The notes beneath the pieces were generated by a model, which saw only the letters and a program-made list of their open reading frames with translations, was not told the DNA's origin and did not search any database. A DNA stretch of 64,000 bases from an uncultured bacterium. Lineage in GTDB: Bacteria > Omnitrophota > Omnitrophia > Omnitrophales > Abzuiibacteriaceae. This document shows positions 28,739 through 59,265 of this stretch, piece after piece; the stretch's first letter is position 1; each line of letters opens with the position of its first letter. Where the stretch lies: contig CAYLXA010000003.1 of the NCBI GenBank assembly GCA_964387845.1, forward strand, positions 32,001 through 96,000. The letters run 5' to 3'. Both the position numbers and the translations under genes were made by a program.

Positions 28739-28739
28739 T

Positions 28740-31440: not shown

Positions 31441-31478
31441 TTATATAAGAAATCGCGAAAAATGCTAAGAGAAAACGG

Positions 31479-31964
31479 TTAATTGAGCATGCCGCGGAGG
31501 CGATTCACGGCGCGGGCGGCAAGAGTGTAATCGGGATTTTCTTTAAGAGAAAGTTGGTAATATTCAAGCGCTTTCACCCAATTTCCCTTCTTTTCGTATA
31601 CTCGGCCCAGATTGTAATGCGGGTAGCAGTAACTTTCATAGCGTTTGGCTTGCGTGGCTTTCATGAGCCATTCGACGGCTTCGTCGTATTTTCCGAGCTC
31701 GATTAGATAGGCGCCGATATCGTTGTAAGGATTTCCAAAATCAGGATCGATCGAAATGGCTTTTTTACATTCCTCGATCGCTTCACTGTGGCGGCCCTGA
31801 AAACTGTAGGACCAGCCCAAAAAAGTATGCGCTTCGGCGGTCGGATAGACTTCAATCGATTTTTGGTAATTCAAAATCGCCTCCTCGACCTTGCCTTCCA
31901 TTTGGAGCTTATAGCCTTTTTCGAAAAGCTCCTGCGCAATTTCGCGTTCCGGTTTCCATTCCAT
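31479..31964 (-). CDS. TPR-repeat protein
   Basis: 161 aa of consecutive TPR motifs. Confidence 0.6.
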   Translation of the reverse strand: MEWKPEREIAQELFEKGYKLQMEGKVEEAILNYQKSIEVYPTAEAHTFLGWSYSFQGRHSEAIEECKKAISIDPDFGNPYNDIGAYLIELGKYDEAVEWLMKATQAKRYESYCYPHYNLGRVYEKKGNWVKALEYYQLSLKENPDYTLAARAVNRLRGMLN

Positions 31965-41339: not shown

Positions 41340-41822
41340 GTGACCATGACGATTCTAAAGTTCGTCCGCCGAAAAAGATCAAGCGGCATATACGGAGGCC
41401 TCGAAAAACGCAGGCATGAGCGGTTTTCCTTCGAACTTCCGCTTCGTTTTCAATCCGCAGGGCCCGAATCTCACGGCCCGCTTCAAATGGGAAAAGCCAG
41501 AGACGTCAGCCAGGGCGGCATGTTGTTTAAGGCCGTTAATCCACTTGCCCGCAAAACAACCGTTTTAATTGACCCCAATACCAAGCTGCTTTCCAAATTA
41601 ATCCGGATCGAAAAGGAACTTGTCACAATCGGCGGGAAAATTTTGGCGCGCGTCATGCGCACACATCTGAATCTTAATAATGGCTTGTTCGAAATCGGTG
41701 TGGAGTTTGTGAAAGTTAATGCAAAAGAAAAGAAATTTGAAGAAGAATCTGTCCGGGAAATCGGACAAAAGTTAGAAACCAAGCACAACCGTTTAGACAA
41801 ACGACGGTTTGGGTTTGCCTGA
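41340..41822 (+). CDS. PilZ-domain protein (putative c-di-GMP receptor)
   Basis: 160 aa; RRHERF (RxxxR) and DVSQGG (DxSxGG) motifs. Confidence 0.7.
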   Translation: MTMTILKFVRRKRSSGIYGGLEKRRHERFSFELPLRFQSAGPESHGPLQMGKARDVSQGGMLFKAVNPLARKTTVLIDPNTKLLSKLIRIEKELVTIGGKILARVMRTHLNLNNGLFEIGVEFVKVNAKEKKFEEESVREIGQKLETKHNRLDKRRFGFA

Positions 41823-42731: not shown

Positions 42732-45700
42732 TTACGCCGCTTTTCCAAGTACGGCGCGGCTAAAGAGCGTATGCATGAGTGAGCTGATAAATTCCGAGCT
42801 CGGATCGATCACGTCGCCCAACGAACGGAAATTGAACGAATCATTATGAGCGATTAGAAGCTGCGCAGCCTCAACGGCTCCCGGTCGGCCCAAAACTTTT
42901 GGAATATCACGCCGCGTGAGTTTTGAGAATAAATCGTGCTCGCCAATGGCCACAATCCGAGTCGTATCGCCTTTTGCATTGAGTTCATGTTTTAAGCGGT
43001 CGATTAAAATATTGTACGCTTGATCCGCCGAAAGTTCGCGGCCGACACTCAAACGCTCGCGCGTATAAAGCTGCAAGCGCGATCTTTGCCCGCTTTGCTT
43101 GCCAAAAATGTCGGCGTTTGGAAATAACTCTTCAACAGCCCTTTCGGCAACAAATGTGTTATCAAATTCGGAAGCGACAACCGAAAATTCGATTTTTGAA
43201 CCGGGATTTGCACTCATATCCGCCAAAATCGCTTCGCGCAATTCCGAACGGTTCTTCAATTCCTCAAACGAGATTACAATATTCCCCTTCACGTTTGACG
43301 GAATGCTTGCTTGATTCGCTTCACGCCTCAATTCAGACCGGGATTCTTGAGTTTCACCAAAAACCGCCTTAAGTCGATCCAAATATTGTGTCCGGTAAGC
43401 GCCCTCCGGAAAGTCTTCCAACTCGTCGGGATGGCTGCGGGCGGCGTCTGCTTCCTGTTCGACCTCATCGCCAACCCGTTCATCCTCTAAATATTCTTTG
43501 ATCACCTTCGTGGCCGCTTCAAGCTGTGCTTGGGTAATTCCCAATCGTTTAGGTGCTTCCAAATAAATTGCGATCGGTGTTTCATATATTGTGAAAAGCG
43601 TGGTGGCGGTTATCCGGCTTGAAAAATGATTCGCCGGATTATTTTCTTCACCAATCCAATAACGGACACCTGCCTCGATCAAAGGCAGTGTCAAGCCGAG
43701 CAATATTCGGCTTGGGCCTTCATGCAAGCCGGCAGCGTGATTTAAAACTGCGTGTTCAAGATGAAAAGAACTGTTGTCCAAACGGCTTTCAAAATGATCT
43801 TTAAATTCATTCCGGATATGCTCGATCAATGCCTCATCGCTTGTGCGCAATTCAGAGCGGGATTCGTCCTTTCGTACAAGAGCGCTCTTCCAGCCTCTTG
43901 ATTTTTGGCCGTCAGCGCCAACCGCCATCAGCATGTTGCCAAGTTCGTACGTTTGTAAATTGGTCCTGCCAAATACAGCATTTGTTAAAATTTTTACTTG
44001 CACACTTTTATCTTCGATTTCTGAAATTACTTTTAAGATTGGATTAGCATTGGTTAAAGCATCTTTAATGATCCACCTCGCTAAATATTTTGGAAACTTT
44101 AAGAAAAATTCTTCTTGTTCCAGAAAAGTCAAATCAGAAAATTTTTCATCCAAAATTCTGATCAATTCATCCGTTGTTTTGACCTCGCCAAATCTTGGCC
44201 AAGCCGGGAAGTTTTCCTGAATAAATTCTTGTATTTTTAAAACTCTTTGTGCATCGTTAGAAAATTTTTGTCCTTTTGTTGCTTCTGAGATTAACTGATT
44301 TGTCAGAAGGCGTGGATTTTCTATTTGATATAAATTCGAAATTTGAATTCTTTCATCTTTGGATAATTCCGATATTTTCTGCCGAAGACGGCGTTCTAAA
44401 TCCATATCTTTTTCAGGATCAATAAAGGGCAATTCGTAGAATGAGGCGTCTGCTAAATCAGGATGATGACGGGTTAAATAAGTCAGTAAAATATCTTGGA
44501 TGCTTCTGTTTTCCAAAGGTACGTTGCCATCGCCAAATTCCCGCACTAAGAGTTCTTTTTTATTTGAATCACCAGATATTAATAATCTATTCGAGGCATC
44601 AATAAAAACTTCCGGAATAATTCCGGGGAATGCGAGAACAATCTCTCGTCCTTGCCGGAAACTATTCGGCTGAAATTTTTCCTGTGCCCAATCCGGAATA
44701 TCAGTTCTTCCCCAAAGTCCGCCTGCTTCACCCATAAAATCCCGTTTTAATTCTCTTTCTAAAGACTCAAATGAAACACCAGCGCGCAAAAGCCAGCTTA
44801 ATTTGGTCCGCGCTTTCGAGAAAGTCATGTGATAAGGAATATTAATGGCGCCTGATTGCGAAACATTTGAAACAACAGGGATTTTCTTCCTTTTCAAACT
44901 TTGAATAGTAGCCCTGATATATTCGATCTCGGGGTTCTTTGAAAAATCGCCCTGGATAACAAGTCCTGCCCGAACGCCGGCTTGCTCTGCGTGCCGCTCG
45001 ATTCGATTGCCGGCTTGAAAGAGCACCAGCGCAGGCGTTGTTTCATCTATAAGCAAATGCTCAACATAACCAAATTCTTCATTTTTATGAAACTTTGGTT
45101 GTTTTTCTAGATTGGCCAATTTGCTGCTTACTGTTTGTAAGAAATCCATATCGAAACTGATATTTCCCTTGGAATCAACGGCGCCGATTGCTTTTCCATA
45201 ACTAGCAAAAAGACTCCCTTTTGAAGACGAGTCCGTTCTGATCTTCGAAATAAGACTTCCGAGATAGATTTGACTGTCAATGACAACATAGACCAAATTT
45301 GGAATATCTGTACGTTTTGCAACTTCTTCAGCTGCTTTCAAATTTAATATCTTTTCCTTTTCATTAACCGTGGAAGATCCTGTTAAAACAATTCGTGTCG
45401 GTAATGATCCATCAAATTCAAGCGAAAGAACCAGGCCTGTTTCTGCCAAGGTGTCGGTTCCGTGCGTGAGGATAATTCCACCCATTTCTCTTTGAGAAAC
45501 CTTGATCTCTTCGGCTAATGTCGTCTTCCTCGAGATTTCATCTTTGATATGATCAATTATTTTTTCCCATTCTTTCGGGCCAATATTCGTACTATCCGGA
45601 TTTTTATCGAAAACACTTTTGTAAAAAACAGTATTCTTTAAATGCGTTAATAAAACTCTTACCGCATCAACAGTCTTCCGCGCAAATTCGCCGATCATAT

Positions 45701-48700
45701 CAATCGTTCCGCCGGCATTTAAGATTGAAACGCCGGACAATTCTTTCTGAAGTTCTGCAATACTTTGCCCGCTGCGCAATTCGGATCTCACGTTTTCTTC
45801 AACCGGCTCTTCGGCATTCGGCTCATCGAGCTGTTTCAAGACGCGGTTTGTGGTAGCAATCGAATCTTCAAAAACGCCCAGCTCTTCCTTCGCTTTTTTC
45901 AATTCTAATAATTCCCTTGCCTGATCTTCAGGAAGTTCGACAATCCGGTCTTTGATTTCCAAAATCTTTTCAAGTCTGTCCGGACTAACGCCCAGCGCTT
46001 TCCTTAAAAATGCGGAATCTTTTAAATAATCAAAGAGCTTTTCGACCGCTTTGGCCATATCAAAAGGAGGAAGGATTTTGATGTATTGATCAATGTCGGG
46101 TGTTTTGTTTTCCCATGCATCTTTCAAGATCGTCACATTCTGGACTATTTTTTTCTTCGTTCCCTTTCCTCCCTTCACCGGAGCATCCACAATCTTGGGT
46201 GCCAATTCGATGCCGGTTAAACGAGCTATTTCCGGCATCCTGGATTCTTTGTTATAAAGCTCTTTTCTAACCCGGTAAGGCAGCCGCATAACCAGATCTG
46301 CATGAATACGAGCTCTTAATAGTGCTTTATACTCAGGGCTTCCGAATTCAATCGGTTTTTCGGGTTCAGGCTCTTGCGTGACAGAGGAATTTTCGAATGA
46401 ATCGACTAATGGGGTTTTTCCTATGATCGCCCGGGGTATCTCCAAACGCCTATTCGTTACCGCTGCCTGGCGAGCGTTTTTAGGTAAAAATTTATCGGCG
46501 AAATGCGGCGGATACGGATCCGCATTAAGTTCTAGAACCGTTTCGCGCCTAATCCCATAAATTAAATCTGAAGTCACATTCAATATTCTCGCCAACTTGC
46601 CCACTAATCTAGTAACTTCGGTGAATTTGACTTGTTTACTCCCGGAAAGCACTGCGTGAACATGCCCATAGGTTTCTTGTATTTGATTAAAAAGCTCGCT
46701 GGTAGTGATATGAGTAATGCCTCTTGCTTCAACAATGATTCTAATTCTGTCCCAATATGTCAAACTTGGATCAAACAAAGATTCGATAATGGCTGGCGTA
46801 AGAGCATAAATCGTCCATTGATCAACCGGAGATGCTCTTTCAATTTCCGAGACAAATGGTGGTTGCTGTTCTGGTTGGGGCGCTTCGGAAGCAGTTTCTG
46901 GAGTACTATCAATGTTTTTTAGCATTTCCGACAATCTAAGCGGCAACATTTCTTCTGCAGTTTCTTCTATCGTACCCGTCAGGGGTTGTTCTTCTGTTTC
47001 TGAGGGTTTAGCTTCAGTCAAAACTTCTTGTTTTACCAACTCAAGTTCTTGCTCGGTAGTCAAACCCAATCGTATGGAAAACTGTTCAAAGAGCATGATT
47101 TCTGGCCCTAAGATCCTTCTGATTTCTTTACCCTCTTCGCTTTCAGGAGTGTGGAGCAATTGTGCAAACTCCAAAGTATCTACTAACACTTCCCGGCTGG
47201 CAATACGCGGCCCCCCAAATGCGGGGTTGGTCGGCGGTACAAACAATAAACCTCGGTCAATCATATGCTGCAATGCTTCACCCATACGGGCTCCGCCGAT
47301 CGTGGTACCGAGCCGCGGATGCCAAACGACGTCCTGCGATTGGCCTTCCGATTTCGTATAAATTTCTTCCCAAAGAATCAATGCAATCAAGAGAGGCGCC
47401 ATTATCCTGCCTTTGTTCGGCCCGCTTTTGTATTTGAAAAGAACGTCGGGATCCTTCAGTAAAGTATCGGGAAGCAGATATTCTTTCACTGAAAATTTCA
47501 AATATTCTTTCAATGCGGCTTGATCCACGGAAAGATTTTCAAACGGTTGGTCTGGATTTCTGTTTAAGATTGCTTCTTCAATTTTTTTGCGAACCTCCGC
47601 ACCCATTTCATGATCAACTTCGAGCTGATTTTTGCTGTTAAACAATGATTCAAAATCCAACCCCACATGATTCGTGTATTCAGACATAGCTTCTACTTGC
47701 CATGGCTCTAGCTTTTCTGAAAGCCATTCGTGCACTTGCCCTACTCGAATGGTAACGTCCCGGTATTTTTCATCAGAATAAATTTGGTCAACTAATTTGC
47801 TAATTTCTTGAGGGTCTTCTTCTTTGATTGTCTTGAAAAATAAGTTTTCAAGATCGGCATCTCCCGTCAAATGATGAAGCAGCATATACCGAAGAATTGT
47901 TTTTTGCGTATTGCCTGCAAACCGCATTCCTCTCACAGTATCTGAATCCCTCATCTTAGTAATCGCTTTCATGGAGGAGCGCCGGATATTACCATGCATG
48001 CGCTCGACTGCCTGGCGATTAAGTCCGAAAATCAAATAAAGATCGATGATCATAAGCTGGGTTTCAACTGGAAGAGCTCCGCTTTGCTCGAAGCTTCTCT
48101 CAACAGCTTTATCAATCAATCCAATTTGACCTTCAATCAACAAATGTGTACGCCGGCTCGAATCCATCATCGATTTCAAAAGCTTCAATCGGTGGCCTTC
48201 GGCTAACGCTAAATCACGAAATTCGATCTGAAGCGTTGTGCTGCGATTCATTTCTATCTGGCGTGAAAAAACTTTGTCCAGTTTTTCAAACGCTTTTTCC
48301 AAGTCTATCTTTGCCTGGCCGATCAACTCTTCCGCAAGCTCCGGTTCGACTTGATCCACCAAGTGATCGGCTTGGTTTAGTTTTGCTTTTGCCTGGCCTA
48401 AATAATATTTAAACCATTGCTTATAAACTTGGGTTGAAATGTCTTCATAGATAGAACGTAAACGCCAATAAGCTTCTCCCCATTTGCTGGATGTTTGGCT
48501 CTCTTTAAATGAATCATCGTCCAAGAATGTTTTTACGGTTACGGCAACCTTCATCATGGTTTCGTAAAATAAATTAATTCTTGCTTGTTGAATGGAAATA
48601 TCCGATGCGCCGGATAGTGACTTGAAGTCTTTGTGCAAACGCCCGTAAACAGGAGATGTTCTGCTTTCAAAAAATATAGACTCTTTATTTTTAATATCCA

Positions 48701-51700
48701 AAAGAGAAAGCAAAACATCCAACTTTTTTAAGACGGTGTTGAGATGTCTGTTTTGAAGAATGGGCGGGATTCTGGCCGTTAAAGCATGGGCGCCTTCCAA
48801 CCATGAATAAAACGCATTCCGCTCATCAGAAGTTCCCATTAAATCGATAAATTCATCTAATTCCTTTTTTAACTTTACCAAGCTATCAAAGTGGCGAACC
48901 AGGTCGGAATTCTTCAAATCCGAAAGAAATGCATCTAGAAAAGCAGATGATTGAGACGCTATTTTCAACTGCTCTTCAAGTTTCGCCCGGCTTTCGGCAG
49001 TATTTTCGGAGGCCAATGCAGTCAAGGCAGTTTGGCGTAAAGCAGAAATGGATTCTACCTCGATAAACTTTTTGGCCAACTCGTCAATTTTCTGGATTCT
49101 CTGAATAATTTTTTCACTGCGGGTTTTCCGAACAAAAGAAACGGTTTCATTTTCATTTGATTTAACAATCAAATTTAAAATTAACGGCAGGGCTTCCTTT
49201 CTGAAGAATTTGCCCACGATTTTCCGGATCTCATCCAGTTTTTCTGACCGTCCTTTTTCCGGATTATTGGCAAGTTGATTAATGCTCAAAATTCCTTCGT
49301 CAACTTCAAGAAGCCACGAAAATACAGTTTCTATTTCACTTGCGGTGCCTAGATCAGAAATAAATTTTTCAAACCGGCTTTGGATTTCTCTCAGTTTGTG
49401 ATAAGCATCCCTGTTCTCACTTTCGGTAAGACCGTCAAATATTTTTTTCAGAATTTCAAAAGATTTTCTTGCTTCCGATCCAATATTTTTAAGATCTTCA
49501 AACCCTGCAAACGCCGTTTCGATGTCGAATTCCCCGTCACTTGAAGCAGGAATTAATTTGGATAAAACAAATGAGTCTAGATCGGAAAACCATGCGTCTG
49601 AAAAAAATGCTGCATATTGGGGCGCTGCGGCCGCATAAGTAGTTTTGCTGCGTGTGATTTGAGACAGTAATAAATTCCCGCGGCTATTCGCTGATTTCCA
49701 GCTGTTCATATTCATGCTTTCAAGCGAACGCAATTCTGATTTCTTGCTTTCAGCCGCATTCAACGTTTCGGCAATGAACGTTTTCATTACGCGATAGACA
49801 TATTCGGTTTGCTCTTGGGTAGGTTCGCTATTAAGAAAACGATCATAGAATTTGGCGGGATCCGAACCGCGCGGGTAAGCCTGTGAATAAGACAAAAGCC
49901 AGGCGCCAATAATAGATTGTCTAAACGTTGGAAGAGGAAGTTTTTTTAATTGTACGCCGCGGAGGCCGATGTTGACGAAAATAGCCGGCACATTTGCATC
50001 AAATTCTTTCCAACGGCGAAGGCGATGAATCGGCGCAAACCGGTCAAGCTCGCCCTTCCAAGGAATATAATCAATCTTCAAATCCTGCCCGTCGACCGTA
50101 ATTTTTTTCAAATCTTTGAGCAATTCCATAGCTTTAGAAGTGGCAATAATGCGGATCGGAGCGCGCGTTTCGCGAGGGCGTCTTTCCATAAACGTGATAT
50201 GCCAATCCATCATAAACGGAATATCGGGAAATTTTTGATGCAGGACCTGCATGAATTTTTCTCCGATTGGCGCCGGAATAGATTCAAAATTAGGCTGTGA
50301 ATCCGGTTTAATCTCGGCTATCAATTCTTCCGAAAATGCAGCCAACATTTTTTTGAATAACTTGTCCCGCTCTCCATGAAATTCGAGACGTTTTTGAAAA
50401 TCTGCGGCGCCTGCCGACATTTTTCGTTTCGTGCTCAAGCGCCGCTTTTTTCTTTCAGAAGGCCAATCTTTTTCTGCGTCATTTGTGATACGCTTTTGAA
50501 CAATATGCAGCAAGCGACTATTGATTTCATTACCGATTAAACCTTCCCGATCGGAAGCTTTGCTGAAATGAAAGTCGATCAAATTTAAACTGCTCTGGTC
50601 ATCACTTGTTTCAATTGCACGATCAATATCTTCTATCACTTTTTCCAATGTTTCAACAAACCACCGTTCTTTATCTTTGGAATATCGCTTTGACGCGGCC
50701 CCGTGCTCAAAAATTCTTCTCCCTTCTCTTCTATAAGCTTCGAGCATCCGCATAACACCCCGGTAAATCAAGTTGGTCTCGCCGACCGGCGTAAAAGACG
50801 ATCTCCACCTGCCGATTGCAGCATACCCGCCAAATTCTTGTTTCAAATCACGAATCATTGCTGCCGTGCGCTCCAAAGGATAATCACGATCAGTCAAGAT
50901 AAGCGGTGCTGTTCCTTCGGAGGATTTGACCGATTCCAGCAATTGAATTGCAGAACCAATGCTTTCCGGGAACAAATCTTCCGGAGCAAGCAGGCCCAGC
51001 TCAAACATGATTTGATTAAAAATGGTGCGCTGAGGGCCTCTCAGGCCTTTTATCCATGGATCTTTTTCGTAAATGGGCCGGATGCTTTTTGCGGTGATAT
51101 TGCCGTCTTCATCGCGATATTGATTGAATATATCGTTTTCGATTAAATATTCGATCGTGTTGTTTAAATAATCATACTGACGTAGCGTATCGGTCCATAA
51201 CAATAGAAGAAAAACAAGTTCGGGAGCCGGTTTTTGAAAGGGCATGAGCTGCTCGATTAATTCGTCGGATTCAAGAACTTTTCGGTAATAATCGACTAAA
51301 TTTTCAAATTTGGGATCTTTTATTTTATATTCTCCGCGATCAAACTTGCGAATAACTCTCCTAAGCACTATTCGAACGTCGTGCTTGAGCAGGGCTTCAT
51401 ACGCATACAACACACGTGATATTTTGTTGTCATAATCCCACGACGGATTTTTAGCAAAATCACTCTCGATCGCGATAAGGGTCCTAGCAATCAAACTTGC
51501 TGCATACATATTAGACCCCGGCAGCGGGTTGCCATACATGAGATCGGTTACATTTGGATGGACAATGTTTCCTGCGCGATCTGTCTCATCATTGGAAACA
51601 ACTTCATTGGGGAACACCTGATCCATAATAGCTTCACGGCTTCGAGTCCTCCGGTATTCTTCCCGTGCCCATTCTAAACGTTTTTTAAGTTGCCACCCTT

Positions 51701-54700
51701 TCGACCCTATTCCCAAAACAGACAACAACATCGCAATTGCATAATCCCGATAACCGACGTTTCCGACCATTTCAAACCGCAGCCTTGGATTGATTGCACG
51801 ATTCAGCCGGCGTACTACTTTTCGAAGAGAATGTTCATTTGCGTATTGAAACGCCGGAATTTTAAGTGCGATCGTGCTTGGAAGGCCCGCCTTCTCTTTA
51901 ATAGCACGCTCGTAATGATTTTCTTGCTCGTTTTCCGCTAATCCTGATAAAGCATGAAATATTTTCCTTTCGGCAGAATCCTCAGACTCCAAATAAGCAT
52001 GCCAAGCACGAGATTCAAATCGCCCCCACAAGTTTCCAAGTCCATGAAATTGGCTTTGAAATGCAAAAACCTGGCTTGCGCTCGCCATTTTATTTAGATG
52101 ATAACTGGCTTCGACAAGTTGACGATAAATATCGGGCAGGCCTTTTGAAGGCGTCATTTTGTACCGTTCTAGAGTTTCAAATGCGGCGTTCTTATGATAA
52201 TCAAAATAGAATTCGTGAATGCTTATGATTAACTCTCTGGTTTTTTCTTTAAAAACATCAATGGCGTGCGATTTCCCAAGCCCCATTGCGAGATCATAAA
52301 ACGATTGGAAGTACCGCGATAACCCCTCTGAGACTGCAAACCGGAGTCTCGCGTCGGTCTTGGATTTTTCGAGCAACGTATTTGTTATATCGCGAACAGG
52401 TTCAAAGAACACTTCCAACTTTGATTCGACGTTACTCTTTTTATTTCTTTTTGTACTGCCCTTTTTGATGTTGGCTGTCGCCAAACTAATTAAAAATTCT
52501 TGTGCGGTCTTTTGAGAAAAAGAATTGATGATGTGTTCCCACAAAAATATTGGTACTTTGATTTTAGATTTTGCACTCTGCACTAAATCTAAAAACATCC
52601 TTTCGGTCATTCTTTTATGATTGAAATTTTTTACGGGCAATACACGCACGCCGGGAATCGACTGAATTAAGAAATAGCTTTCTCTTTGGTCCTTATCTCC
52701 GCTTGTTTCTAACTTGCGGCTCGTAATGAGTTTGACTCTCGCAATAATTTTTAAGTCTGTTTGTTCTCCTCCGCGTGCAATCAAGAAACCATCTTCACGG
52801 CTTGGATTTAGTTTTATATCAAATTTTAAATCGTTTTGATTCTTTTCGCCGATGATCTGTTGGATTTTGTCCAAATCTTTCTGCCGATGCCATGCGGATC
52901 TGATTCCGACAAGAGAACCGCCCACCGATTCAACTCGCACTCTTGATATTTGTTTAGGGACAGATTCAACACGAATATGCATTGATTCGGTATTGCCATC
53001 CTCGTCAAAAACAACTGTAAATGTGCGACCGTGGCCAACTGAAACTAACTGCCGACCCACAAATCTTTTGGTACCAATCCGCTTCGCTTGAGAGATCAAT
53101 GCATCATCCGATCTGAGTTCAGACTTTTTTGTGGCCTGTCTTATTTCAAAATACTGCTGATAAAGTTCCTGAAAACTCGGCGTTTCCTGGATTTCAAGTT
53201 CGATTTCTCTAGCCATGTCCACTGCAGTGTCATTCAGAATATTTTCGTATGCACCAGCATCATAAGCTTTCTGTGAATCCTTACCGATTTCGTCCAGCCA
53301 TTTCCTCTCTGCCGGAATCCAGTCTTTATAATCATAAAAAATACTTTCGACATCCTCATAGGCCGTGAAGCGGATTAATTGTTTAAGAATAGCTAAAACC
53401 GCAGGGCTTACCGCAACGCTAATTGGAACATTGGCGTATTTACCTTTCATGTAGATTAAAAACAGCATGAACCGCCGCCAGCCAGCCATTTCGCCGCAGA
53501 TACTGACTTCCAACCCTGCCGCGCTCGCATGCTCAATGATTGTTTCGATCTTTTCAAGAAATGTGGAAAGCAATTCTGTGTACAATCTTCCGCCATATTC
53601 ACGGTCCCGGCCGAATGTTTGTTGCAATAAATCATTGGTGCCGATAGAAATAAAATCGACGTATTTCTTCTGTGCGATCACCGGAAGATTTTCAATGGCT
53701 TTGTTGGTTTCGATCATAATTCCGAACGGAATTTTGATCCGGAAGCGATTAAGATCGTGACGAAATTTTTCTAACTCCTGATCAAAGATAGTCCGGACAA
53801 ATATTACGTCATCCTCAGTTTGAACCATCGGTACAAATACTTTGACCGCAGATTCTCTTCCGGTTTCTCCTTCGGCGTGAAAATGCTCTGCAGCCATAAT
53901 GCTCGCGCGAATTGCCGCTCGAATTTGAGCTCTCAAGATCGGTTCGCCTTCCGTAGGATCCCTGTAAAGATCGAACCCGATTTTTGTATTCGTTTCTGAA
54001 ATGGCTGAAACAGGCTTGTCCAGCTGACGGTCTAACGTTCTTACCGCAAATGCGCCACGTAAGATAATCCTGCCCTGAGATAATATTTGAGTAAGATCGT
54101 CTTCATATTCTTTTATATTTGCTTCCCAGGATTCGTGGCGGTAGAAATGCGTAGGGAAATTGACTTCGGTTCGATAGAGCCGCACACCATCCGTATCTGC
54201 GGAAAGCTCTTGAATATGTTCAAGCGCATCCGCACTTCCGCTAACTTCCATCAACAGTGAAGCAACGCTGTCTTTCTTTGCAAACACAGGTTCTAGTGCG
54301 AGGGTTTTTGCCAATTGCAAATACGCTTCTTCCTTGACGATTTTCTGTTCATATTCGGCAGCATCTTTTTGTGAAGGATTGGCATGCAGCATTCCGTTTT
54401 CCCCGTCCGCATAAATGATTTGCCCTGACTTGATATCTGCAAACTTACCTAGTTTGGCCTTGAGCGCGGTAAGAACTAAGATCCCGTAATTAGCGCCGAC
54501 AATAACCCAATGTTCGGTGGGAGATCCAAACTCGGCTACAACCGCACCCAAATTTGGGTAAGCTTTTTTTAGACTTAAGAGAGTCGGCGCATTCATCGCT
54601 CCTGCCAAATACGGCTGTTCTTTTGAGACTTTTAAAATAACCACCAAATGATCAACTTTATCCGTCGTAAATTGCTGATCCGACACCAATTGCCGCGCCA

Positions 54701-57700
54701 TTTTTTCGTTTAGAATCAAAACTGCGTCTTTTAAAAGAACTAAAATATTTAGCAGCGTTTTCTCCTGAAGATCGGATGTGTCTTCAGAACTCATCTTGGT
54801 GCCGATATCCAAAATCAACTTTTGATAAGCATATTGGAGCGCAACATCAGGATACACATTTTTTGTATTGATTAACCAGCTGGTTTCTTCTTGAAATCGA
54901 TCAAGAAGCTCTTGAAATGAATACTTATCCGGCATGTTGTCGACAGGCGCTTGATCAACTAATTGGTCAGCCGCTGATTGAAATGCGCTTGCTATTTGAT
55001 CGTTGTATTCTTTGATTTTCTCTTGATAGAGTTCCTCGGACATTCCTTCCATTTTAAAAGACTCGCCATAGCTCAAAAAACTCATCATCCGGTAGAGCGT
55101 GGAAAGGATTTCCCTATTTCGAGCCTTGATCTGTTTTTCTTCATCCGTGCCCTCGGTTCCCTTGAGAGATTCGATGGCATTATGGATATCTTTAACAATT
55201 CTAGGAATTGGCTGGCCGGCTTTTTCAAGCTGTGTATAAGCATTGGGGTGCGCATACAACTTAAACGCATCGAAATATGAGATTTTTTTGTCCTTCAAAG
55301 ATTCCATCACTAATTTTATTGAATCGGTGTTATATTTAAAAAATTGCCATGTGATTTCTAATGCTTTTGCATCACGCAGACGCCCTTTTTGCTTTAGATC
55401 CCGAATTCTAATTTGAAAATCGAAATTAAAAATATCTAGAATCGCTTTAAAATGTTGCACATCACGTTCGGCAGCTTCAGGGCTAAGAATGGCAGGCTGT
55501 TTAAATTTGCTGCTAAATTTTTCCAAACTCTCTCCTAGCGCTCTGCTCGACCACAAATAGTAAATCTGAAAACCAACGCTATTCACTTTTGATTTAATTT
55601 CTTCTTCAAGAAGATGATCCGCTCTTTTCCCTTCGCTTTCTATTTTTTCCAGAACAGAATCTTTCAATTCGTCTAAAACTTGCAGTAAATTTTTGTTCGA
55701 TTGGTCTTCTTCCAAAATCATCCTGTCTATCTTTTCTGAAAATTTTACCTTTTCGATTCTTATCTTTTCTTGAACATCTGGTTCTTCATCCAAATTCGAT
55801 CTCAACGAATAAGCAGCTGTAAAAAAGTCGTCTGCCTGGAAAAGCATCGTGGTGCCTCGAAATACACGCCGGGCCTGATTTTTATTGCCCTGCATCAGAA
55901 CGGTTCGAAGTTCTGATCTTTTTTCCGATTCGCCTTCGGCATCACTTGTTTTGCTTTTGGATTTTTTCTCTTCGATCATTTCTTCAATGAGATCCAGCAG
56001 ATCTGTTAGTTGAGGGGGCAAAACTCCTTCGATTGCGTCCATGCTCAGCCCTGTATTCGCAATCACTCTTGCGATTATTTCGAGAGCGCTGTTTCCTGTA
56101 GAAACCGGATTTGCATTTATAATTGCCGCTATTTCCTCGTCATTTACTGATTCTTCTTTCGGGTCAAAATAAGAAGCGATTCCGGATTGCGCAGCAGGTT
56201 TTTCGGATTTGTTTTCTGCTGCTTGAGGTTGGGTTTGCGGCTCTGCCGGCTGTGCTGATTTGGCTTTTTCAATGACGAGTTGAAAAAAAGCGTCTCTCTG
56301 GTTTTGCTTTATCGATTTGAATTGATCATTTATAAACTTAGCGAAGGTCGATCCTGCTCTTAAGGGAAATTTATTCACGCTCGGATTCCCTTGTTTATAT
56401 TCGCTTGCCAATGCGCCACTCTTGTTAGCGTCTGTGATAATTGTCCGCTCAATTTCTGTTAGGTTGCCTTCCTTCCCCTCGGCAAGTTTCACAACGCCGG
56501 AAAAAAATGCTTCCACGTTTGCCTGCTGCGTCATATCTGCCGGAACTCCCGCCGCCCAATCGATCAATTTTTGGATTTGCGAATTGACAGCCCGCAATTC
56601 AGAACGATCGTTCTTCTCAGATTGTTGAGAAGGTTGTATAGAAACTGCATACGAGGCCAATTTCGAATCATCAAAATATGCCCTATCAATAAACTTTTCA
56701 AAAGTGGCTTGCCAACCGTCAGGGTTGTAGTAATACTCGGGCAACGATTTTCCTGATTTTGCTTGCACTTCGGATGCAAACCTGAGCAAAGCTTGTTGGA
56801 TAGGAACAAGAAACCGGTTATCAAAATTCTCCGCCGCTGTCCCCGGATTATTTTTGTTGATCAACGCACGCGTATATCCCAATTGCAGCGTCATTAGTTT
56901 CAAAATGTATCTTGATTTTTTCCAGTTCTTATCATTTGCGGCATCACGAAATCTCGATGAATCATAATGAAGGCGCGTTAATGTTGCCGCAAGTGATTCC
57001 GGATATTGATCCCTGGAGACATAGCGGACTTTAAGCCAATCAGATGCAACATCATCTAAAAATACCGAAACAACTCTGTGGGGAGTTTGTTCAATAACAA
57101 CCGACTCTGGATCCTTGAAACCAACCACCCCATTCTCATAAGCAAGATGGCCGACTTCGTGATACACATGATAATCGCTTACCCATTCAAATAACCGTGC
57201 CCTGTCTTCCTTATTTCCAATCTCACCGTGGTGGATAATTTGATGCTGGAGCATTGCCATTCTGAGTGAAATTCGGAGTCTGCGATAAGTTTCGTCATAA
57301 ATTAACGAAAATCCTGTATTGTCAGCCATAGATTCCGAATCTTTCATTTCAGCCGAAAAATTGATAGAGGGTGTCTCTAAAAATTTCTTCAACTCTGCCG
57401 GTAACTTTTCATAACTCTCAGAGGTTCGGCTTATCATCAAAAACGAATCCAAAATCTCTTCCATACTTAAATTGAGCTTCTTGAGTTCGCGATAAATCAT
57501 GATTAGCATAGAAAAAATATTTTGGCTTAATTTGTCAGGAAATTTACTTGTTGAAGATGGGATATAAAGGAATGATGATTGACCGCCTCGATAGGCCGAA
57601 ATAATAACATCAATTGGCCTTGCAAAAAGCCATCTTGAAAAGTAAATAAGCATCACTTGTGTAAGTTTTTTGATTTGAGACAGGTTGGGAAATTCTGGTT

Positions 57701-59243
57701 GTAAACGCAATTCCGATCTGTGTGAAATTGGATCTGCAGAATTAAAATATTCCTGCGGATTAAAATCCGAATTAAAAACTTGAAGCGGATTTGAGATGGC
57801 GGAAGATTTTAGAAACTCTTCGAACTTGGGTTTTAGTTTCTCAAAAGTTGGTGTTTCACCGTTCATGCGTTCGTAATAGCGGTCGTAATCCGTTTCCGGA
57901 GAAACTTGCGGCGAAATCAAAACAAACGGAATGTTTTCCTTTCGGAATTTTTCGGTTAGGTCTTCGGCATGAAAACCGCCGGTGACGAGGATAATGCCGG
58001 AGCCCGGCGGTAAAGGGTAAGCGTTAGGCGTTAAGTCTGACTTATCGCTTAACGCGTAACGCTTAACGCTATTTAAGAATGCTTCATCGCGTCTTTTGCT
58101 GGTGGTATAAAACTGTTCAGCAACATTGAGTTTTTTCGGATCTAGTTTTCCTTTGAGAAATTTTGTAATTTCTTTTTTGTGCTGTTGGTAAAATAGAAAG
58201 TCTTCCGGAGTTGCCTGCAGCGAAACGAGCGCTTTAACGGATTTTAAATATTCGCCTTCTTCATGAAGCCCTTCCTCACCTTTTCCGGAAAACAAACGCT
58301 CACGGACACGGTCTTTGAAAAGACTAATTTCACGAAACAAATTTACAGCACCGATTTCGCGGCTGATTCTTTCAAATTCTTTCTTCTCATCTATTTTTTC
58401 GCCGGCTTTCACACCCGTTAAACTGCGCTCCAATAGAACAAGCGATATTAATTTCTCAATCTCATACAAATCCGAGCGCTTGACGCCTTCGTTGCGCCCA
58501 ATATTCGCTAAATGAGAGATCAGCGAAATTAATTCGCCGCGCTGTTCGTATAAGCCCGTTTTTGTTTCGAATTCGAGCAAGCGCTTGTTGTACGTTTTCT
58601 CTTTCGCTTCCTGATTTTCTTTAAAAAGAAAATGGACGGCGGGCAAAAGTTCTTTTTGCACTTCAAGTGCTTTTAAAAATTCCTTCCGGTTTGAATCATA
58701 AAGTGCCGCATCTTCGGCCCCGATTAACTCATAGGACTTGGGGTTTAAAACGGCTTCTGCTTCAATGCCGGTTAAAATAACCTGCTCAAGCCAAAATCGG
58801 GTGGCGAGTTCTTTTACTTTTTGGTTAGGATAATTACGAAATCTGAAAAGATCTGCAGTGCCGGATGCGCCCTCGGCTAAAATCGTGCGGACGCCGAATT
58901 TTTCCGATATAAGCCTTGCGATCTTCTGAATATTCTGCTGAGCGCCCAGGTTTGCGTGAGCATCTTGGATGTAAAAAACTATAGGGGCAAGGGTCATGGG
59001 TCCAGGGTCAAGGTTCGTTCCTTGACCCTTGCTACTTGCTACTTGACCCTTCGGAATAAAGACTTCCGAGACACGCCCCAGAGCTTCTGGAATTAAATTT
59101 CCAAAATCCTGTTGATTAGATATGGGTCTTTGGTAATCAAGAGGCGCTGCATGAGAGATGTCTGCCCAGATAAACGCCACGATTAGGACAAACGCAATAA
59201 TGCGGAGAGCCGGAGAATATTTTTTGTTTTGGGGGAAAAACAA
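42732..59243 (-). CDS. Giant multidomain protein (5,503 aa) with N-terminal signal anchor, HExxH, PEP-utilising-enzyme-like and asparaginase-like modules, nine [RK]SELR motifs
   Basis: Single uninterrupted 16,512-nt ORF; TTG start preceded by GAGGTG; hydrophobic segment LRIIAFVLIVAFIWADISHA; YHVYHEVGHLAYENG; DGVRLYRTEVNF / FISIGTNDLLQQTFGRDREYGG / SICGEMAG; LNAGGTIDM / ILTHGTDTLAETG. Confidence 0.85.
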   Translation of the reverse strand: MFFPQNKKYSPALRIIAFVLIVAFIWADISHAAPLDYQRPISNQQDFGNLIPEALGRVSEVFIPKGQVASSKGQGTNLDPGPMTLAPIVFYIQDAHANLGAQQNIQKIARLISEKFGVRTILAEGASGTADLFRFRNYPNQKVKELATRFWLEQVILTGIEAEAVLNPKSYELIGAEDAALYDSNRKEFLKALEVQKELLPAVHFLFKENQEAKEKTYNKRLLEFETKTGLYEQRGELISLISHLANIGRNEGVKRSDLYEIEKLISLVLLERSLTGVKAGEKIDEKKEFERISREIGAVNLFREISLFKDRVRERLFSGKGEEGLHEEGEYLKSVKALVSLQATPEDFLFYQQHKKEITKFLKGKLDPKKLNVAEQFYTTSKRRDEAFLNSVKRYALSDKSDLTPNAYPLPPGSGIILVTGGFHAEDLTEKFRKENIPFVLISPQVSPETDYDRYYERMNGETPTFEKLKPKFEEFLKSSAISNPLQVFNSDFNPQEYFNSADPISHRSELRLQPEFPNLSQIKKLTQVMLIYFSRWLFARPIDVIISAYRGGQSSFLYIPSSTSKFPDKLSQNIFSMLIMIYRELKKLNLSMEEILDSFLMISRTSESYEKLPAELKKFLETPSINFSAEMKDSESMADNTGFSLIYDETYRRLRISLRMAMLQHQIIHHGEIGNKEDRARLFEWVSDYHVYHEVGHLAYENGVVGFKDPESVVIEQTPHRVVSVFLDDVASDWLKVRYVSRDQYPESLAATLTRLHYDSSRFRDAANDKNWKKSRYILKLMTLQLGYTRALINKNNPGTAAENFDNRFLVPIQQALLRFASEVQAKSGKSLPEYYYNPDGWQATFEKFIDRAYFDDSKLASYAVSIQPSQQSEKNDRSELRAVNSQIQKLIDWAAGVPADMTQQANVEAFFSGVVKLAEGKEGNLTEIERTIITDANKSGALASEYKQGNPSVNKFPLRAGSTFAKFINDQFKSIKQNQRDAFFQLVIEKAKSAQPAEPQTQPQAAENKSEKPAAQSGIASYFDPKEESVNDEEIAAIINANPVSTGNSALEIIARVIANTGLSMDAIEGVLPPQLTDLLDLIEEMIEEKKSKSKTSDAEGESEKRSELRTVLMQGNKNQARRVFRGTTMLFQADDFFTAAYSLRSNLDEEPDVQEKIRIEKVKFSEKIDRMILEEDQSNKNLLQVLDELKDSVLEKIESEGKRADHLLEEEIKSKVNSVGFQIYYLWSSRALGESLEKFSSKFKQPAILSPEAAERDVQHFKAILDIFNFDFQIRIRDLKQKGRLRDAKALEITWQFFKYNTDSIKLVMESLKDKKISYFDAFKLYAHPNAYTQLEKAGQPIPRIVKDIHNAIESLKGTEGTDEEKQIKARNREILSTLYRMMSFLSYGESFKMEGMSEELYQEKIKEYNDQIASAFQSAADQLVDQAPVDNMPDKYSFQELLDRFQEETSWLINTKNVYPDVALQYAYQKLILDIGTKMSSEDTSDLQEKTLLNILVLLKDAVLILNEKMARQLVSDQQFTTDKVDHLVVILKVSKEQPYLAGAMNAPTLLSLKKAYPNLGAVVAEFGSPTEHWVIVGANYGILVLTALKAKLGKFADIKSGQIIYADGENGMLHANPSQKDAAEYEQKIVKEEAYLQLAKTLALEPVFAKKDSVASLLMEVSGSADALEHIQELSADTDGVRLYRTEVNFPTHFYRHESWEANIKEYEDDLTQILSQGRIILRGAFAVRTLDRQLDKPVSAISETNTKIGFDLYRDPTEGEPILRAQIRAAIRASIMAAEHFHAEGETGRESAVKVFVPMVQTEDDVIFVRTIFDQELEKFRHDLNRFRIKIPFGIMIETNKAIENLPVIAQKKYVDFISIGTNDLLQQTFGRDREYGGRLYTELLSTFLEKIETIIEHASAAGLEVSICGEMAGWRRFMLFLIYMKGKYANVPISVAVSPAVLAILKQLIRFTAYEDVESIFYDYKDWIPAERKWLDEIGKDSQKAYDAGAYENILNDTAVDMAREIELEIQETPSFQELYQQYFEIRQATKKSELRSDDALISQAKRIGTKRFVGRQLVSVGHGRTFTVVFDEDGNTESMHIRVESVPKQISRVRVESVGGSLVGIRSAWHRQKDLDKIQQIIGEKNQNDLKFDIKLNPSREDGFLIARGGEQTDLKIIARVKLITSRKLETSGDKDQRESYFLIQSIPGVRVLPVKNFNHKRMTERMFLDLVQSAKSKIKVPIFLWEHIINSFSQKTAQEFLISLATANIKKGSTKRNKKSNVESKLEVFFEPVRDITNTLLEKSKTDARLRFAVSEGLSRYFQSFYDLAMGLGKSHAIDVFKEKTRELIISIHEFYFDYHKNAAFETLERYKMTPSKGLPDIYRQLVEASYHLNKMASASQVFAFQSQFHGLGNLWGRFESRAWHAYLESEDSAERKIFHALSGLAENEQENHYERAIKEKAGLPSTIALKIPAFQYANEHSLRKVVRRLNRAINPRLRFEMVGNVGYRDYAIAMLLSVLGIGSKGWQLKKRLEWAREEYRRTRSREAIMDQVFPNEVVSNDETDRAGNIVHPNVTDLMYGNPLPGSNMYAASLIARTLIAIESDFAKNPSWDYDNKISRVLYAYEALLKHDVRIVLRRVIRKFDRGEYKIKDPKFENLVDYYRKVLESDELIEQLMPFQKPAPELVFLLLLWTDTLRQYDYLNNTIEYLIENDIFNQYRDEDGNITAKSIRPIYEKDPWIKGLRGPQRTIFNQIMFELGLLAPEDLFPESIGSAIQLLESVKSSEGTAPLILTDRDYPLERTAAMIRDLKQEFGGYAAIGRWRSSFTPVGETNLIYRGVMRMLEAYRREGRRIFEHGAASKRYSKDKERWFVETLEKVIEDIDRAIETSDDQSSLNLIDFHFSKASDREGLIGNEINSRLLHIVQKRITNDAEKDWPSERKKRRLSTKRKMSAGAADFQKRLEFHGERDKLFKKMLAAFSEELIAEIKPDSQPNFESIPAPIGEKFMQVLHQKFPDIPFMMDWHITFMERRPRETRAPIRIIATSKAMELLKDLKKITVDGQDLKIDYIPWKGELDRFAPIHRLRRWKEFDANVPAIFVNIGLRGVQLKKLPLPTFRQSIIGAWLLSYSQAYPRGSDPAKFYDRFLNSEPTQEQTEYVYRVMKTFIAETLNAAESKKSELRSLESMNMNSWKSANSRGNLLLSQITRSKTTYAAAAPQYAAFFSDAWFSDLDSFVLSKLIPASSDGEFDIETAFAGFEDLKNIGSEARKSFEILKKIFDGLTESENRDAYHKLREIQSRFEKFISDLGTASEIETVFSWLLEVDEGILSINQLANNPEKGRSEKLDEIRKIVGKFFRKEALPLILNLIVKSNENETVSFVRKTRSEKIIQRIQKIDELAKKFIEVESISALRQTALTALASENTAESRAKLEEQLKIASQSSAFLDAFLSDLKNSDLVRHFDSLVKLKKELDEFIDLMGTSDERNAFYSWLEGAHALTARIPPILQNRHLNTVLKKLDVLLSLLDIKNKESIFFESRTSPVYGRLHKDFKSLSGASDISIQQARINLFYETMMKVAVTVKTFLDDDSFKESQTSSKWGEAYWRLRSIYEDISTQVYKQWFKYYLGQAKAKLNQADHLVDQVEPELAEELIGQAKIDLEKAFEKLDKVFSRQIEMNRSTTLQIEFRDLALAEGHRLKLLKSMMDSSRRTHLLIEGQIGLIDKAVERSFEQSGALPVETQLMIIDLYLIFGLNRQAVERMHGNIRRSSMKAITKMRDSDTVRGMRFAGNTQKTILRYMLLHHLTGDADLENLFFKTIKEEDPQEISKLVDQIYSDEKYRDVTIRVGQVHEWLSEKLEPWQVEAMSEYTNHVGLDFESLFNSKNQLEVDHEMGAEVRKKIEEAILNRNPDQPFENLSVDQAALKEYLKFSVKEYLLPDTLLKDPDVLFKYKSGPNKGRIMAPLLIALILWEEIYTKSEGQSQDVVWHPRLGTTIGGARMGEALQHMIDRGLLFVPPTNPAFGGPRIASREVLVDTLEFAQLLHTPESEEGKEIRRILGPEIMLFEQFSIRLGLTTEQELELVKQEVLTEAKPSETEEQPLTGTIEETAEEMLPLRLSEMLKNIDSTPETASEAPQPEQQPPFVSEIERASPVDQWTIYALTPAIIESLFDPSLTYWDRIRIIVEARGITHITTSELFNQIQETYGHVHAVLSGSKQVKFTEVTRLVGKLARILNVTSDLIYGIRRETVLELNADPYPPHFADKFLPKNARQAAVTNRRLEIPRAIIGKTPLVDSFENSSVTQEPEPEKPIEFGSPEYKALLRARIHADLVMRLPYRVRKELYNKESRMPEIARLTGIELAPKIVDAPVKGGKGTKKKIVQNVTILKDAWENKTPDIDQYIKILPPFDMAKAVEKLFDYLKDSAFLRKALGVSPDRLEKILEIKDRIVELPEDQARELLELKKAKEELGVFEDSIATTNRVLKQLDEPNAEEPVEENVRSELRSGQSIAELQKELSGVSILNAGGTIDMIGEFARKTVDAVRVLLTHLKNTVFYKSVFDKNPDSTNIGPKEWEKIIDHIKDEISRKTTLAEEIKVSQREMGGIILTHGTDTLAETGLVLSLEFDGSLPTRIVLTGSSTVNEKEKILNLKAAEEVAKRTDIPNLVYVVIDSQIYLGSLISKIRTDSSSKGSLFASYGKAIGAVDSKGNISFDMDFLQTVSSKLANLEKQPKFHKNEEFGYVEHLLIDETTPALVLFQAGNRIERHAEQAGVRAGLVIQGDFSKNPEIEYIRATIQSLKRKKIPVVSNVSQSGAINIPYHMTFSKARTKLSWLLRAGVSFESLERELKRDFMGEAGGLWGRTDIPDWAQEKFQPNSFRQGREIVLAFPGIIPEVFIDASNRLLISGDSNKKELLVREFGDGNVPLENRSIQDILLTYLTRHHPDLADASFYELPFIDPEKDMDLERRLRQKISELSKDERIQISNLYQIENPRLLTNQLISEATKGQKFSNDAQRVLKIQEFIQENFPAWPRFGEVKTTDELIRILDEKFSDLTFLEQEEFFLKFPKYLARWIIKDALTNANPILKVISEIEDKSVQVKILTNAVFGRTNLQTYELGNMLMAVGADGQKSRGWKSALVRKDESRSELRTSDEALIEHIRNEFKDHFESRLDNSSFHLEHAVLNHAAGLHEGPSRILLGLTLPLIEAGVRYWIGEENNPANHFSSRITATTLFTIYETPIAIYLEAPKRLGITQAQLEAATKVIKEYLEDERVGDEVEQEADAARSHPDELEDFPEGAYRTQYLDRLKAVFGETQESRSELRREANQASIPSNVKGNIVISFEELKNRSELREAILADMSANPGSKIEFSVVASEFDNTFVAERAVEELFPNADIFGKQSGQRSRLQLYTRERLSVGRELSADQAYNILIDRLKHELNAKGDTTRIVAIGEHDLFSKLTRRDIPKVLGRPGAVEAAQLLIAHNDSFNFRSLGDVIDPSSEFISSLMHTLFSRAVLGKAA

Positions 59244-59265
59244 CCGCGCACCTCAAGATAAATTT

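Follow-up and report, generated by a model that had tools for sequence, protein, structure and literature searches.

With reference to known giant proteins, the MARTX toxins, such as RtxA of Vibrio, are secreted polypeptides of 3,500-5,300 amino acids (aa) in which conserved ends flank a variable string of effector domains. These effectors move between strains and are set free when the linkers are cut; the toxins leave the cell by type I secretion, have no Sec signal peptide, carry glycine-rich repeats and contain an internal cysteine protease that cuts after Leu. In this study, we investigated a 5,503-aa protein encoded by a single gene in 64,000 nucleotides (nt) of DNA from an uncultured bacterium of the phylum Omnitrophota (GenBank assembly GCA_964387845.1, contig CAYLXA010000003.1, positions 32,001 to 96,000 of the forward strand); this whole stretch is called the window, and coordinates are counted from its first letter. 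By analogy, MARTX would be the closest system in logic, as the window protein is also a giant with conserved ends around a variable string of exchangeable cassettes. It differs from MARTX in having a Sec-type signal and no GGxGxD repeats, in lacking a cysteine protease (its one cysteine lies in an Enzyme I (EI)-like module), in its defined pentapeptide delimiter and in belonging to another phylum. We propose that a polyprotein is the best fit to this anatomy, since a short, sharp and flank-free linker motif occurs together with protein-sized exchangeable cassettes and a conserved head whose fold has site-specific endopeptidases as its characterised protease members. The punctuation, the shuffling, the near-total lack of cysteine, the probable HPr-like module and the conserved head and tail shift the reading from a single multi-enzyme protein to a probable polyprotein.

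Phylogenetically, the closest counterparts are the giant Omnitrophota proteins of two preprints, in which unrelated enzyme families are tiled, most with signal peptides and/or transmembrane helices, and cleavage is suspected (10.64898/2026.06.07.730766; 10.1101/2023.11.21.568195). West-Roberts et al. 2023 stated that the cleavage points of the giants are unknown, and linked Omnitrophota giant genes to attack on other cells (10.1101/2023.11.21.568195); an earlier note on this DNA, made from the sequence alone, had tied giant genes to attack, and the organism does belong to the phylum for which that link was made. Nielsen & Lui 2026 described the contradiction between cytoplasm-type content and export in giants of at least 10,000 aa (10.64898/2026.06.07.730766). 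The window protein comes from the same phylum and, like these giants, paradoxically combines an export signal with content of cytoplasmic type. It differs in that the surveys cover proteins of at least 10,000 aa, many with dozens of transmembrane helices, and in that neither preprint reports a conserved head, a delimiter motif, cysteine depletion or cassette reshuffling. These features are new here, and there is a real chance that they represent more than a variant. The suggestion that such an architecture had not been described was only half right, as signal-peptide-bearing multi-enzyme Omnitrophota giants appear in the 2026 preprint. A search of the literature for the motif or for 'polyprotein' in Omnitrophota found nothing relevant, the library searched being incomplete. 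Among other systems, the polymorphic toxins (CdiA, Rhs) also mark exchangeable modules by a short peptide (VENN in CdiA), though these form one variable tip rather than a string of cassettes. In the viral polyproteins of picornaviruses and potyviruses, short conserved peptides are likewise protease sites between mature proteins, but these polyproteins are cytoplasmic and the protease is among their own products.

The 5,503-residue open reading frame (ORF) is a real gene, and it lies in the window as follows.

42732..59243, minus strand: whole ORF, 5,503 aa plus stop codon, TTG start.
59249..59254, minus strand: GAGGTG Shine-Dalgarno sequence, 5 nt upstream of the TTG start.

Both the giant uninterrupted frame and its TTG start with a GAGGTG Shine-Dalgarno sequence had been proposed beforehand, and both were confirmed. 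About 5% of codons are expected to be stops in random sequence, so that a chance origin of an open frame of 5,503 codons is ruled out. The N-terminus lines up with the Met starts of relatives (MF.PRK...), and an identical 5,503-aa protein with a public record in NCBI and Logan (P0001; related proteins are given P numbers and loci L numbers) is found on a 228,088-bp contig. A relative obtained from other samples, P0002/P0151, is colinear with the window protein across residues 1119-4491 (about 3,400 residues), and as these samples are independent, a chimeric assembly is unlikely. Identity to P0002 is 59% in the head, 35% in the cargo and 27% in the tail, suggesting that the cargo evolves faster than the head. 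No internal repeats were found in the 5,503-aa protein. The GC content of the gene (0.40-0.43) is slightly below that of the rest of the window (0.44-0.48).

The evidence that carries the proposal begins with the punctuation motif. We observed nine copies of [KR]SELR in the window protein against 0.24 expected, and none elsewhere in the window. The codons vary at each copy, so the motif is not a DNA repeat. The nine copies are located as follows.

57705..57719, minus strand: motif 1, RSELR, aa 509-513, at the end of the head.
56592..56606, minus strand: motif 2, RSELR, aa 880-884.
55905..55919, minus strand: motif 3, RSELR, aa 1109-1113; a synteny breakpoint with P0003 begins exactly here.
53112..53126, minus strand: motif 4, KSELR, aa 2040-2044.
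49728..49742, minus strand: motif 5, KSELR, aa 3168-3172; the alignments of P0003 and P0004 stop here.
45774..45788, minus strand: motif 6, RSELR, aa 4486-4490.
43845..43859, minus strand: motif 7, RSELR, aa 5129-5133; low predicted local distance difference test score (pLDDT) in the second model.
43326..43340, minus strand: motif 8, RSELR, aa 5302-5306; conserved delimiter before the tail, pLDDT <50.
43236..43250, minus strand: ninth RSELR, aa 5332-5336, inside a folded helix of the tail.

Relatives align RSELR, RSEFR, RTELR or KSELR with motif 8. In the best 150 of the 5,556 head-family matches described below, the wider pattern [KR][SAT]E[LVIAM]R was counted 392 times against 15.8 expected. 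The resulting logo (R94/K6, S75/A23, E100, L37/V34/M11/A10/I7, R100) has flanks that are nearly free of information. Density per 1,000 aa amounts to 1.6 in the window protein and 1.2 in the family, compared with 0.054 in neighbouring ORFs (258,000 aa), where two truncated giants of this same type account for over half of the copies. Motifs in the family are spaced by a median of 280 aa, which is near the typical length of a protein. Two AlphaFold 2 (AF2) models place the motifs at aa 509, 5129 and 5302 in low-confidence linkers. Some cysteine-poor giants of the family (P0015, P0019, P0138 and P0139) are without R[SA]E[LV]R; in two of them, P0015 and P0019, repeated GFGA/GFGT may serve as punctuation instead.

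The family was collected by an exhaustive HMMER search with residues 1-1109 (E<=1e-3), which returned 5,556 proteins of about 430 to 7,979 aa; nearly all of them match the head only, always at the N-terminus. A word-indexed search with the head gave just five relatives, compared with the 5,556 of the exhaustive search. For the locus scan the closer head alignment A2 was used, not the diverse alignment A1, and the 195 loci found in species-representative genomes, together with the named members, are nearly all from Omnitrophota, often with several paralogues per genome. The window protein is one of a large and so far undescribed family of Omnitrophota giants that contain almost no cysteine and would be exported, and it carries all five family features: signal peptide, head, R[SA]E[LVM]R, cysteine depletion and the -[AS]A end. 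Between its head and tail, the motifs bound these cassettes.

56607..57704, minus strand: cassette 2, aa 514-879, with HEVGH inside.
55920..56591, minus strand: cassette 3, aa 885-1108, an orphan for which relatives were not found.
53127..55904, minus strand: cassette 4, aa 1114-2039, EI-like, with a helical N-domain, a phospho-His swivel and a TIM barrel that would bind phosphoenolpyruvate (PEP).
49743..53111, minus strand: cassette 5, aa 2045-3167, no known family, conserved in P0002-P0006.
45789..49727, minus strand: cassette 6, aa 3173-4485, no known family, shared by P0002 only.
43860..45773, minus strand: cassette 7, aa 4491-5128, asparaginase/glutaminase-like.
43341..43844, minus strand: cassette 8, aa 5134-5301, with a putative HPr-like core at aa ~5159-5253 (43485..43769).

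These motif-bounded cassettes are units that are exchanged and reordered among relatives. In local iterative searches, four units (the EI-like cassette, cassettes 5 and 8, and the tail) were recovered again from relatives, with their ends 0-40 aa from motifs and several alignments stopping exactly at a motif. The EI-like cassette precedes cassette 5 in the window protein and P0002, and follows it in P0003, P0004 and P0005; P0002 has other sequences in place of cassettes 2 and 3 and of cassette 7. In ten motif-bearing family proteins, no motif lies inside any of 26 Pfam domain stretches (0/26), against about 7.6 expected. Multi-domain enzymes are kept within one cassette, as with the two lobes of SNF2, the two domains of 2-hydroxyacid dehydrogenase, and the combination of SBD_N, NBD_C and PdxA. 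The punctuated architecture also exists without the head in cis, as P0009 (2,454 aa, locus L081) is headless, has its own signal peptide followed 20 residues on by RAELR, and then an HExxH cassette and three more motifs; it contains zero cysteine and its C-terminus is -QSA. The JGI contig Ga0268299_1000036 (525 kb) encodes both P0009 and P0151.

With regard to cysteine, the window protein has one in 5,503 residues, though about 67 would be expected from the 1.23% of the other ORFs in the window (P about 2e-28).

53496..53498, minus strand: Cys1916, the only cysteine of the protein, in cassette 4.

This residue is the catalytic Cys of the EI-like barrel (CGEMAG), which argues for both strong selection against cysteine and a working enzyme. 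Within the family, the median cysteine content is 0.045% in motif-rich and 0.33% in motif-less members.

The ends of the protein are conserved. At the N-terminus, the following two features were recognized.

59148..59243, minus strand: putative Sec-type signal peptide, aa 1-32, from hydropathy and family N-termini, with predicted cleavage.
57744..59147, minus strand: conserved head, aa ~33-500, with a predicted fold of the Ere/ChaN/TraB/TIKI superfamily.

The signal peptide consists of an n-region with K7/K8/R14, the h-region IIAFVLIVAFIW and a c-region reading S-H-A|A-P; its hydrophobic core is 13-15 residues long, and the family c-regions read SWSAP, SFSAPE, SHAAP and AQAAPE. In 119 of 124 family N-termini, positive charge is higher in the N-flank than in the C-flank. 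The protein would be exported by this Sec-type signal, and the hydrophobic N-terminal export segment predicted earlier was borne out by hydropathy and by these family-wide features. Residues 8-26 are the sole hydrophobic N-terminal segment and no later hydrophobic or transmembrane segment follows in the 5,503 aa, so that the entire chain should cross the inner membrane. Lipoprotein anchoring was rejected, as no Cys follows the signal peptide.

The head (about 500 aa) is predicted well by AF2 (pLDDT 85, dropping from 61 to 41 over residues 481-509), carries a helical insertion of about 230 aa, and has four residues, H96, E124, R385 and H425, that are invariant in 44 family members. By fold and by this His/Glu/Arg/His pattern, the model supports a hydrolase-like domain of the Ere/ChaN/TraB/TIKI superfamily. 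Head and superfamily (TIKI, TraB, PrgY, GumN, ChaN and erythromycin esterase) share the fold and the invariant pattern His...Glu...Arg...Gly-x-His; the head differs in having no Pfam match, in its ~230-aa insertion and in being fused to thousands of residues of cargo. The bacterial members of this superfamily are typically extracytoplasmic. Searches of the head and of ten short family members against the Pfam and NCBIfam models of TraB/GumN (PF01963 and relatives), ChaN and Ere gave no match, so that the TraB/GumN-like N-terminus suspected in the earlier note stands at the level of the superfamily and not as a Pfam assignment. The head profile run against PDB sequences returned only spurious helical matches to Mediator subunit 31.

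At the other end of the protein, the features are as follows.

42735..43325, minus strand: tail domain, aa 5307-5503, predicted Rossmann-like alpha/beta, with a terminal amphipathic helix and -G-K-A-A-COOH.
42735..42746, minus strand: the last residues G-K-A-A, compared with those of P0002-P0157 and of loci L002-L080.

The tail domain is conserved in ten relatives, and its modelled Rossmann-like fold is without the catalytic motifs of HAD. A Foldseek search with the second AF2 model found nothing significant. We also noticed no LPXTG in the window protein, and no autotransporter barrel or C-terminal domain of the type IX secretion system, as the modelled tail is neither a beta-barrel nor a beta-sandwich and has no Pfam or NCBIfam match. 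A single universal tail domain was dropped: the tails of the sub-families are not detectably homologous (hhalign P 0.04-0.2), and therefore only the C-terminal tripeptide signature is retained. Across the family, the extreme C-terminus reads [RKQ]-[AS]-A-COOH, following an amphipathic helix and a basic residue. The final pair is AA or SA in 85 of 157 proteins, compared with just two of the 46 other ORFs of the window. Members of about 700 aa consist of the head and a short tail with the same ending, and the motif-less, cysteine-containing members often end in -L-x-S-L. The free C-terminus appears to be read by something.

Among the cassettes, the EI-like cassette 4 offers the clearest enzyme, with these two modules.

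aa 1562-1617 (His1578), cassette 4, minus strand: phospho-His swivel (mobile His) domain, weak Pfam match.
53448..54218, minus strand: predicted PEP-binding barrel, aa 1676-1932, PF02896 (PEP-utilizers_C).

The barrel matches PF02896 with E 5.6e-37 (127.9 bits against a cut-off of 22.8), and alignment to the EI structure 2hro keeps the phospho-His (SPTEH), LYRTE, VRTLD, GIMIE, GTNDL and CGEMAG. Judged by its sequence, cassette 4 seems a genuine Enzyme-I-like, PEP-dependent phosphotransferase with its catalytic residues intact. The PtsI models of NCBIfam match only from model position 179 onward, and TIGR01417 scores 133.8 bits, far below its equivalog cut-off of 341.7. No match to PEP-utilisers_N or to the HPr-binding subdomain was found in cassette 4; about 440 charged, helical residues that are unrelated to this subdomain precede the His domain. 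An ATP-grasp of the PEP-synthase type was judged unlikely for this N-terminal part, the sequence being charged and helical. The cassette is kept as a unit in P0002-5, P0116 and P0089.

Cassette 8 is probably an HPr-like phosphocarrier. It bears AVLNHAAGLHEGP, for which the counterpart in P0005 is AVLNHSAGFHVRPA; the signature 'AGLHEGP' (aa 5171-5177), compared with 'AGFHVRPA' in P0005, has the His, and Gly replaces Arg17 of HPr. The AF2 model, of modest confidence, shows the beta-alpha-beta-beta-alpha-beta-alpha order of HPr, and hhalign against three HPr sequences, one of them the region of P0006, aligned the His (P 4.3e-4). For cassette 8 itself, neither Pfam nor PDB sequences gave a match, and because the fold searches gave none either and did not confirm the window copy, we rate the assignment as probable. 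The sister protein P0006 has an HPr that matches Pfam PTS-HPr PF00381 (36.1 bits against a cut-off of 23; GLHARP...SAKSIM) and begins 40 aa past one of its motifs, and P0005 consists of head, cassette 5, EI-like module, HPr-like module and tail, and nothing more. A phosphorelay driven by PEP would result from the EI-like and HPr-like modules together. The likeness to EI and HPr of the phosphotransferase system, and to the fused multiphosphoryl-transfer proteins, covers the phospho-His swivel, the PEP barrel, the catalytic set and the probable HPr-like module, with a canonical HPr in the sister protein; the differences are the sub-equivalog score, the ~440-aa helical region in place of the HPr-binding subdomain, and the embedding in what would be an exported polyprotein.

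Cassettes 7 and 2 carry the other two enzyme-like features.

45225..45731, minus strand: asparaginase N-domain, aa 4505-4673, PF00710, in cassette 7.
57147..57161, minus strand: HEVGH, aa 695-699, the sole HExxH of the protein, in cassette 2.

The asparaginase N-domain matches PF00710 with E 7.1e-20 (71.8 bits against a cut-off of 22.5), and its AGGTID, HGTDT and SKIR align with asparaginase structures and are conserved in P0158, an 'asparaginase, partial' of Ca. Omnitrophica that is 36% identical over the whole 643-aa cassette. The C-domain PF17763 reaches 16.9 bits against a cut-off of 34.6, with a second fragment aligning at cassette residues 582-624, which suggests that this domain is split by a long insertion (~240 aa). 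The single HExxH is set against about 0.15 expected by composition in the window protein. The sole homologue of cassette 2 is the 39% identical one in P0009, where 'HEVGHLAY.NG' is kept in the best-conserved shared block; no further relatives were found among the family or metagenomes, and no Pfam, NCBIfam or other family matched. Cassette 2 is a possible metallopeptidase. Regarding the modules for which the earlier note had advised HMMER and Pfam checks, the PEP-utilising phospho-His/TIM-barrel module and the L-asparaginase/glutaminase-like module stood up, with their catalytic motifs in place, and the HExxH found no family. In the remaining long cassettes, a subdomain of about 215 aa is common to cassettes 5 (aa ~2210-2425, ~52000..52620) and 6 (aa 3486-3700, 48144..48788), as a profile built from the relatives of cassette 5 matches within cassette 6 with E 1.8e-51. 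A word-indexed search with cassette 5 gave nothing, and locus scans with residues 1110-3168 gave no close relative in the genome or metagenome collections.

The cargo of relatives is cytoplasm-type and needs PEP, ATP, NAD or nucleic acids. It includes DnaJ, sigma-70 region 3, TauE, starch synthase, SNF2 helicase, HATPase_c and FHA, as well as PEP-utilising modules, PPDK_N, HPr, pseudouridine synthase, methyltransferases, PCMT, 2-hydroxyacid dehydrogenase and a sugar-acid kinase with a PdxA-like domain.

Putting these observations together, we propose that the Sec-type signal would take the precursor out of the cytoplasm, and that the motif would be a proteolytic site at which the precursor is split into separate proteins after Sec export. 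The cutting enzyme would be the head itself or a protease acting in trans. TIKI and RRSP, the characterised protease members of the superfamily of the head, are site-specific endopeptidases, and it is for this reason that the head is proposed as the cutter. The released cassettes would then act outside the cytoplasm of the producer; given the need for PEP, and for ATP and NAD in relatives, the likeliest site would be the cytoplasm of a host or prey cell. Cysteine avoidance would reflect passage and function outside the producer's cytoplasm, and action inside another cell would fit the episymbiotic or predatory lifestyle proposed for Omnitrophota. To processing of the precursor at [KR]SELR we give an even chance. 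The full export-cut-deliver model, namely an Omnitrophota-wide system that makes otherwise cytoplasmic enzymes and regulators (PTS-type phosphorelay proteins, chaperone, helicase, kinase, dehydrogenases) as one cysteine-free precursor, which a TIKI-like head would cleave at R-S-E-[LV]-R, is tentative, and the balance leans against it.

Several observations weigh against this proposal. We infer cleavage at the motif from a pattern in the sequence, and export is deduced solely by sequence rules. To our knowledge, the head family includes no demonstrated protease, and some members of the superfamily are esterases or haem binders. The head occurs in many motif-less proteins, including ~700-aa head-plus-tail proteins and cysteine-containing giants; together with P0009, which has the motif and no head, this indicates that the two are not strictly coupled in cis. 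The motif at aa 5332 lies in a confidently modelled helix of the tail, and relatives have unrelated residues at this place. In the EI-like module of P0116, an RAELR at aa 3541 separates the His domain from the barrel. Also, delivery or secretion machinery does not recur beside family genes at 79 loci.

The main rival is an uncleaved multi-enzyme scaffold in the periplasm or at the cell surface, in which the motif would be a docking or handling element for a chaperone, a translocation motor or an anchor; we consider it rather unlikely. A linker motif without flank conservation would suit a short linear motif equally, and the copy within a folded helix is in its favour, as are the relatives that end in RAELR-x-AA, from which cleavage would trim three residues only. 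Omnitrophota giants have, besides, mostly been discussed as intact surface or membrane proteins. A scaffold of this kind would however hold enzymes that depend on PEP, NAD or ATP, and domains directed at DNA or RNA, with no substrate outside the cytoplasm. The free reordering and replacement of cassettes argues that each functions independently of its neighbours, and no partner gene recurs nearby at the 79 loci.

Next comes a membrane-tethered array on the cytoplasmic face, with the N-terminal helix as anchor and the EI-like and HPr-like relay working in the producer, with or without processing at the motif. This is improbable in our view, even though the intact EI-like and HPr-like modules would make a coherent PEP-dependent relay and all identifiable cargo in relatives is cytoplasm-type. 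Such a placement is preferred in the 2026 preprint for giants with transmembrane helices and without a signal peptide (10.64898/2026.06.07.730766). Against it, the positive-inside rule gives N-in/C-out for the 119 of 124 family members noted above, the h-region has just ~13-15 residues and is followed by an A-x-A-like site, and no later transmembrane segment returns the chain. An array of this kind offers no reason for losing the ~67 expected cysteines. The head-fold relatives ChaN, GumN and PrgY are extracytoplasmic.

The original suggestion, a single secreted or anchored protein combining zincin, phosphotransferase and amidohydrolase for contact-dependent attack with a type IV pilus, is very improbable. 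It is right in that an export signal is present, two enzyme modules are genuine and the Omnitrophota lifestyle fits, but the zincin is unproven and without a family match, and punctuation and cassette exchange are left unaccounted for. The contact function had been argued from nearness to the pilus system. That argument fell away: the type IV pilus/type II secretion-like cluster (1265..8793; an ATPase with an MshEN domain, a secretin and PilM) lies 34 kb from the 3' end of the giant gene, with about 35 unrelated genes, including a complex I operon and many housekeeping genes, in between. Across the 79 related loci, no gene recurs beside the family genes, pilus, secretin, secretion and injection machinery included. 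The distance and this lack of conservation led us to reject a functional link to the cluster. An artefactual ORF, whether mis-assembled, a fused pseudogene or an open frame without coding function, has practically no probability, as homologues with the same head, cassettes and tail come from independent samples and sources, the catalytic residues of the modules are conserved, and the start site agrees with relatives.

Giant Omnitrophota genes are a recognised puzzle, and with the polyprotein reading the open question of their cleavage becomes testable, as the pentapeptide parses the giants into protein-sized units and gives a concrete prediction of cut sites. The motif is likewise a rule for dividing dark-matter giants into units for structure prediction, and the selection against cysteine and the conserved free -[AS]A C-terminus are handles for experiment and annotation. 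If processing and delivery hold, this would be a new way for ultra-small episymbiotic bacteria to manipulate other cells, and a case of polyprotein expression, which is rare in bacteria. If true, the full model, in which cassettes can be freely exchanged, would be a bacterial counterpart of MARTX toxins and viral polyproteins.

In the window, the giant gene has a glycoside hydrolase family 1 (GH1) gene upstream and a gene for an MqnA/D-like futalosine enzyme downstream; no exact match to the GH1 protein was found. An MqnA-like gene adjoins the family gene in three loci, as in the window, and dnaX lies directly upstream in seven of the 79. Head-family genes often stand in tandem, or beside the C-terminal part of another cysteine-poor, motif-bearing giant. 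These neighbour observations are based on loci L009, L035, L042, L043, L070, L077 and L080, and on L038 and L058. The other genes noted in the window are as follows.

23602..31964: complex I (nuo-type) operon, with homologues of a 4Fe-4S subunit, NuoH, NuoG-like, NuoF, NuoE, NuoD and NuoB; it is cysteine-rich, contrasting with the giant gene.
41340..41822: PilZ-domain protein, close to the giant gene.
35552..37111: a 519-aa ThyX with two Thy1 repeats.
37266..39070: a split transketolase, the N- and C-terminal halves being separate genes.

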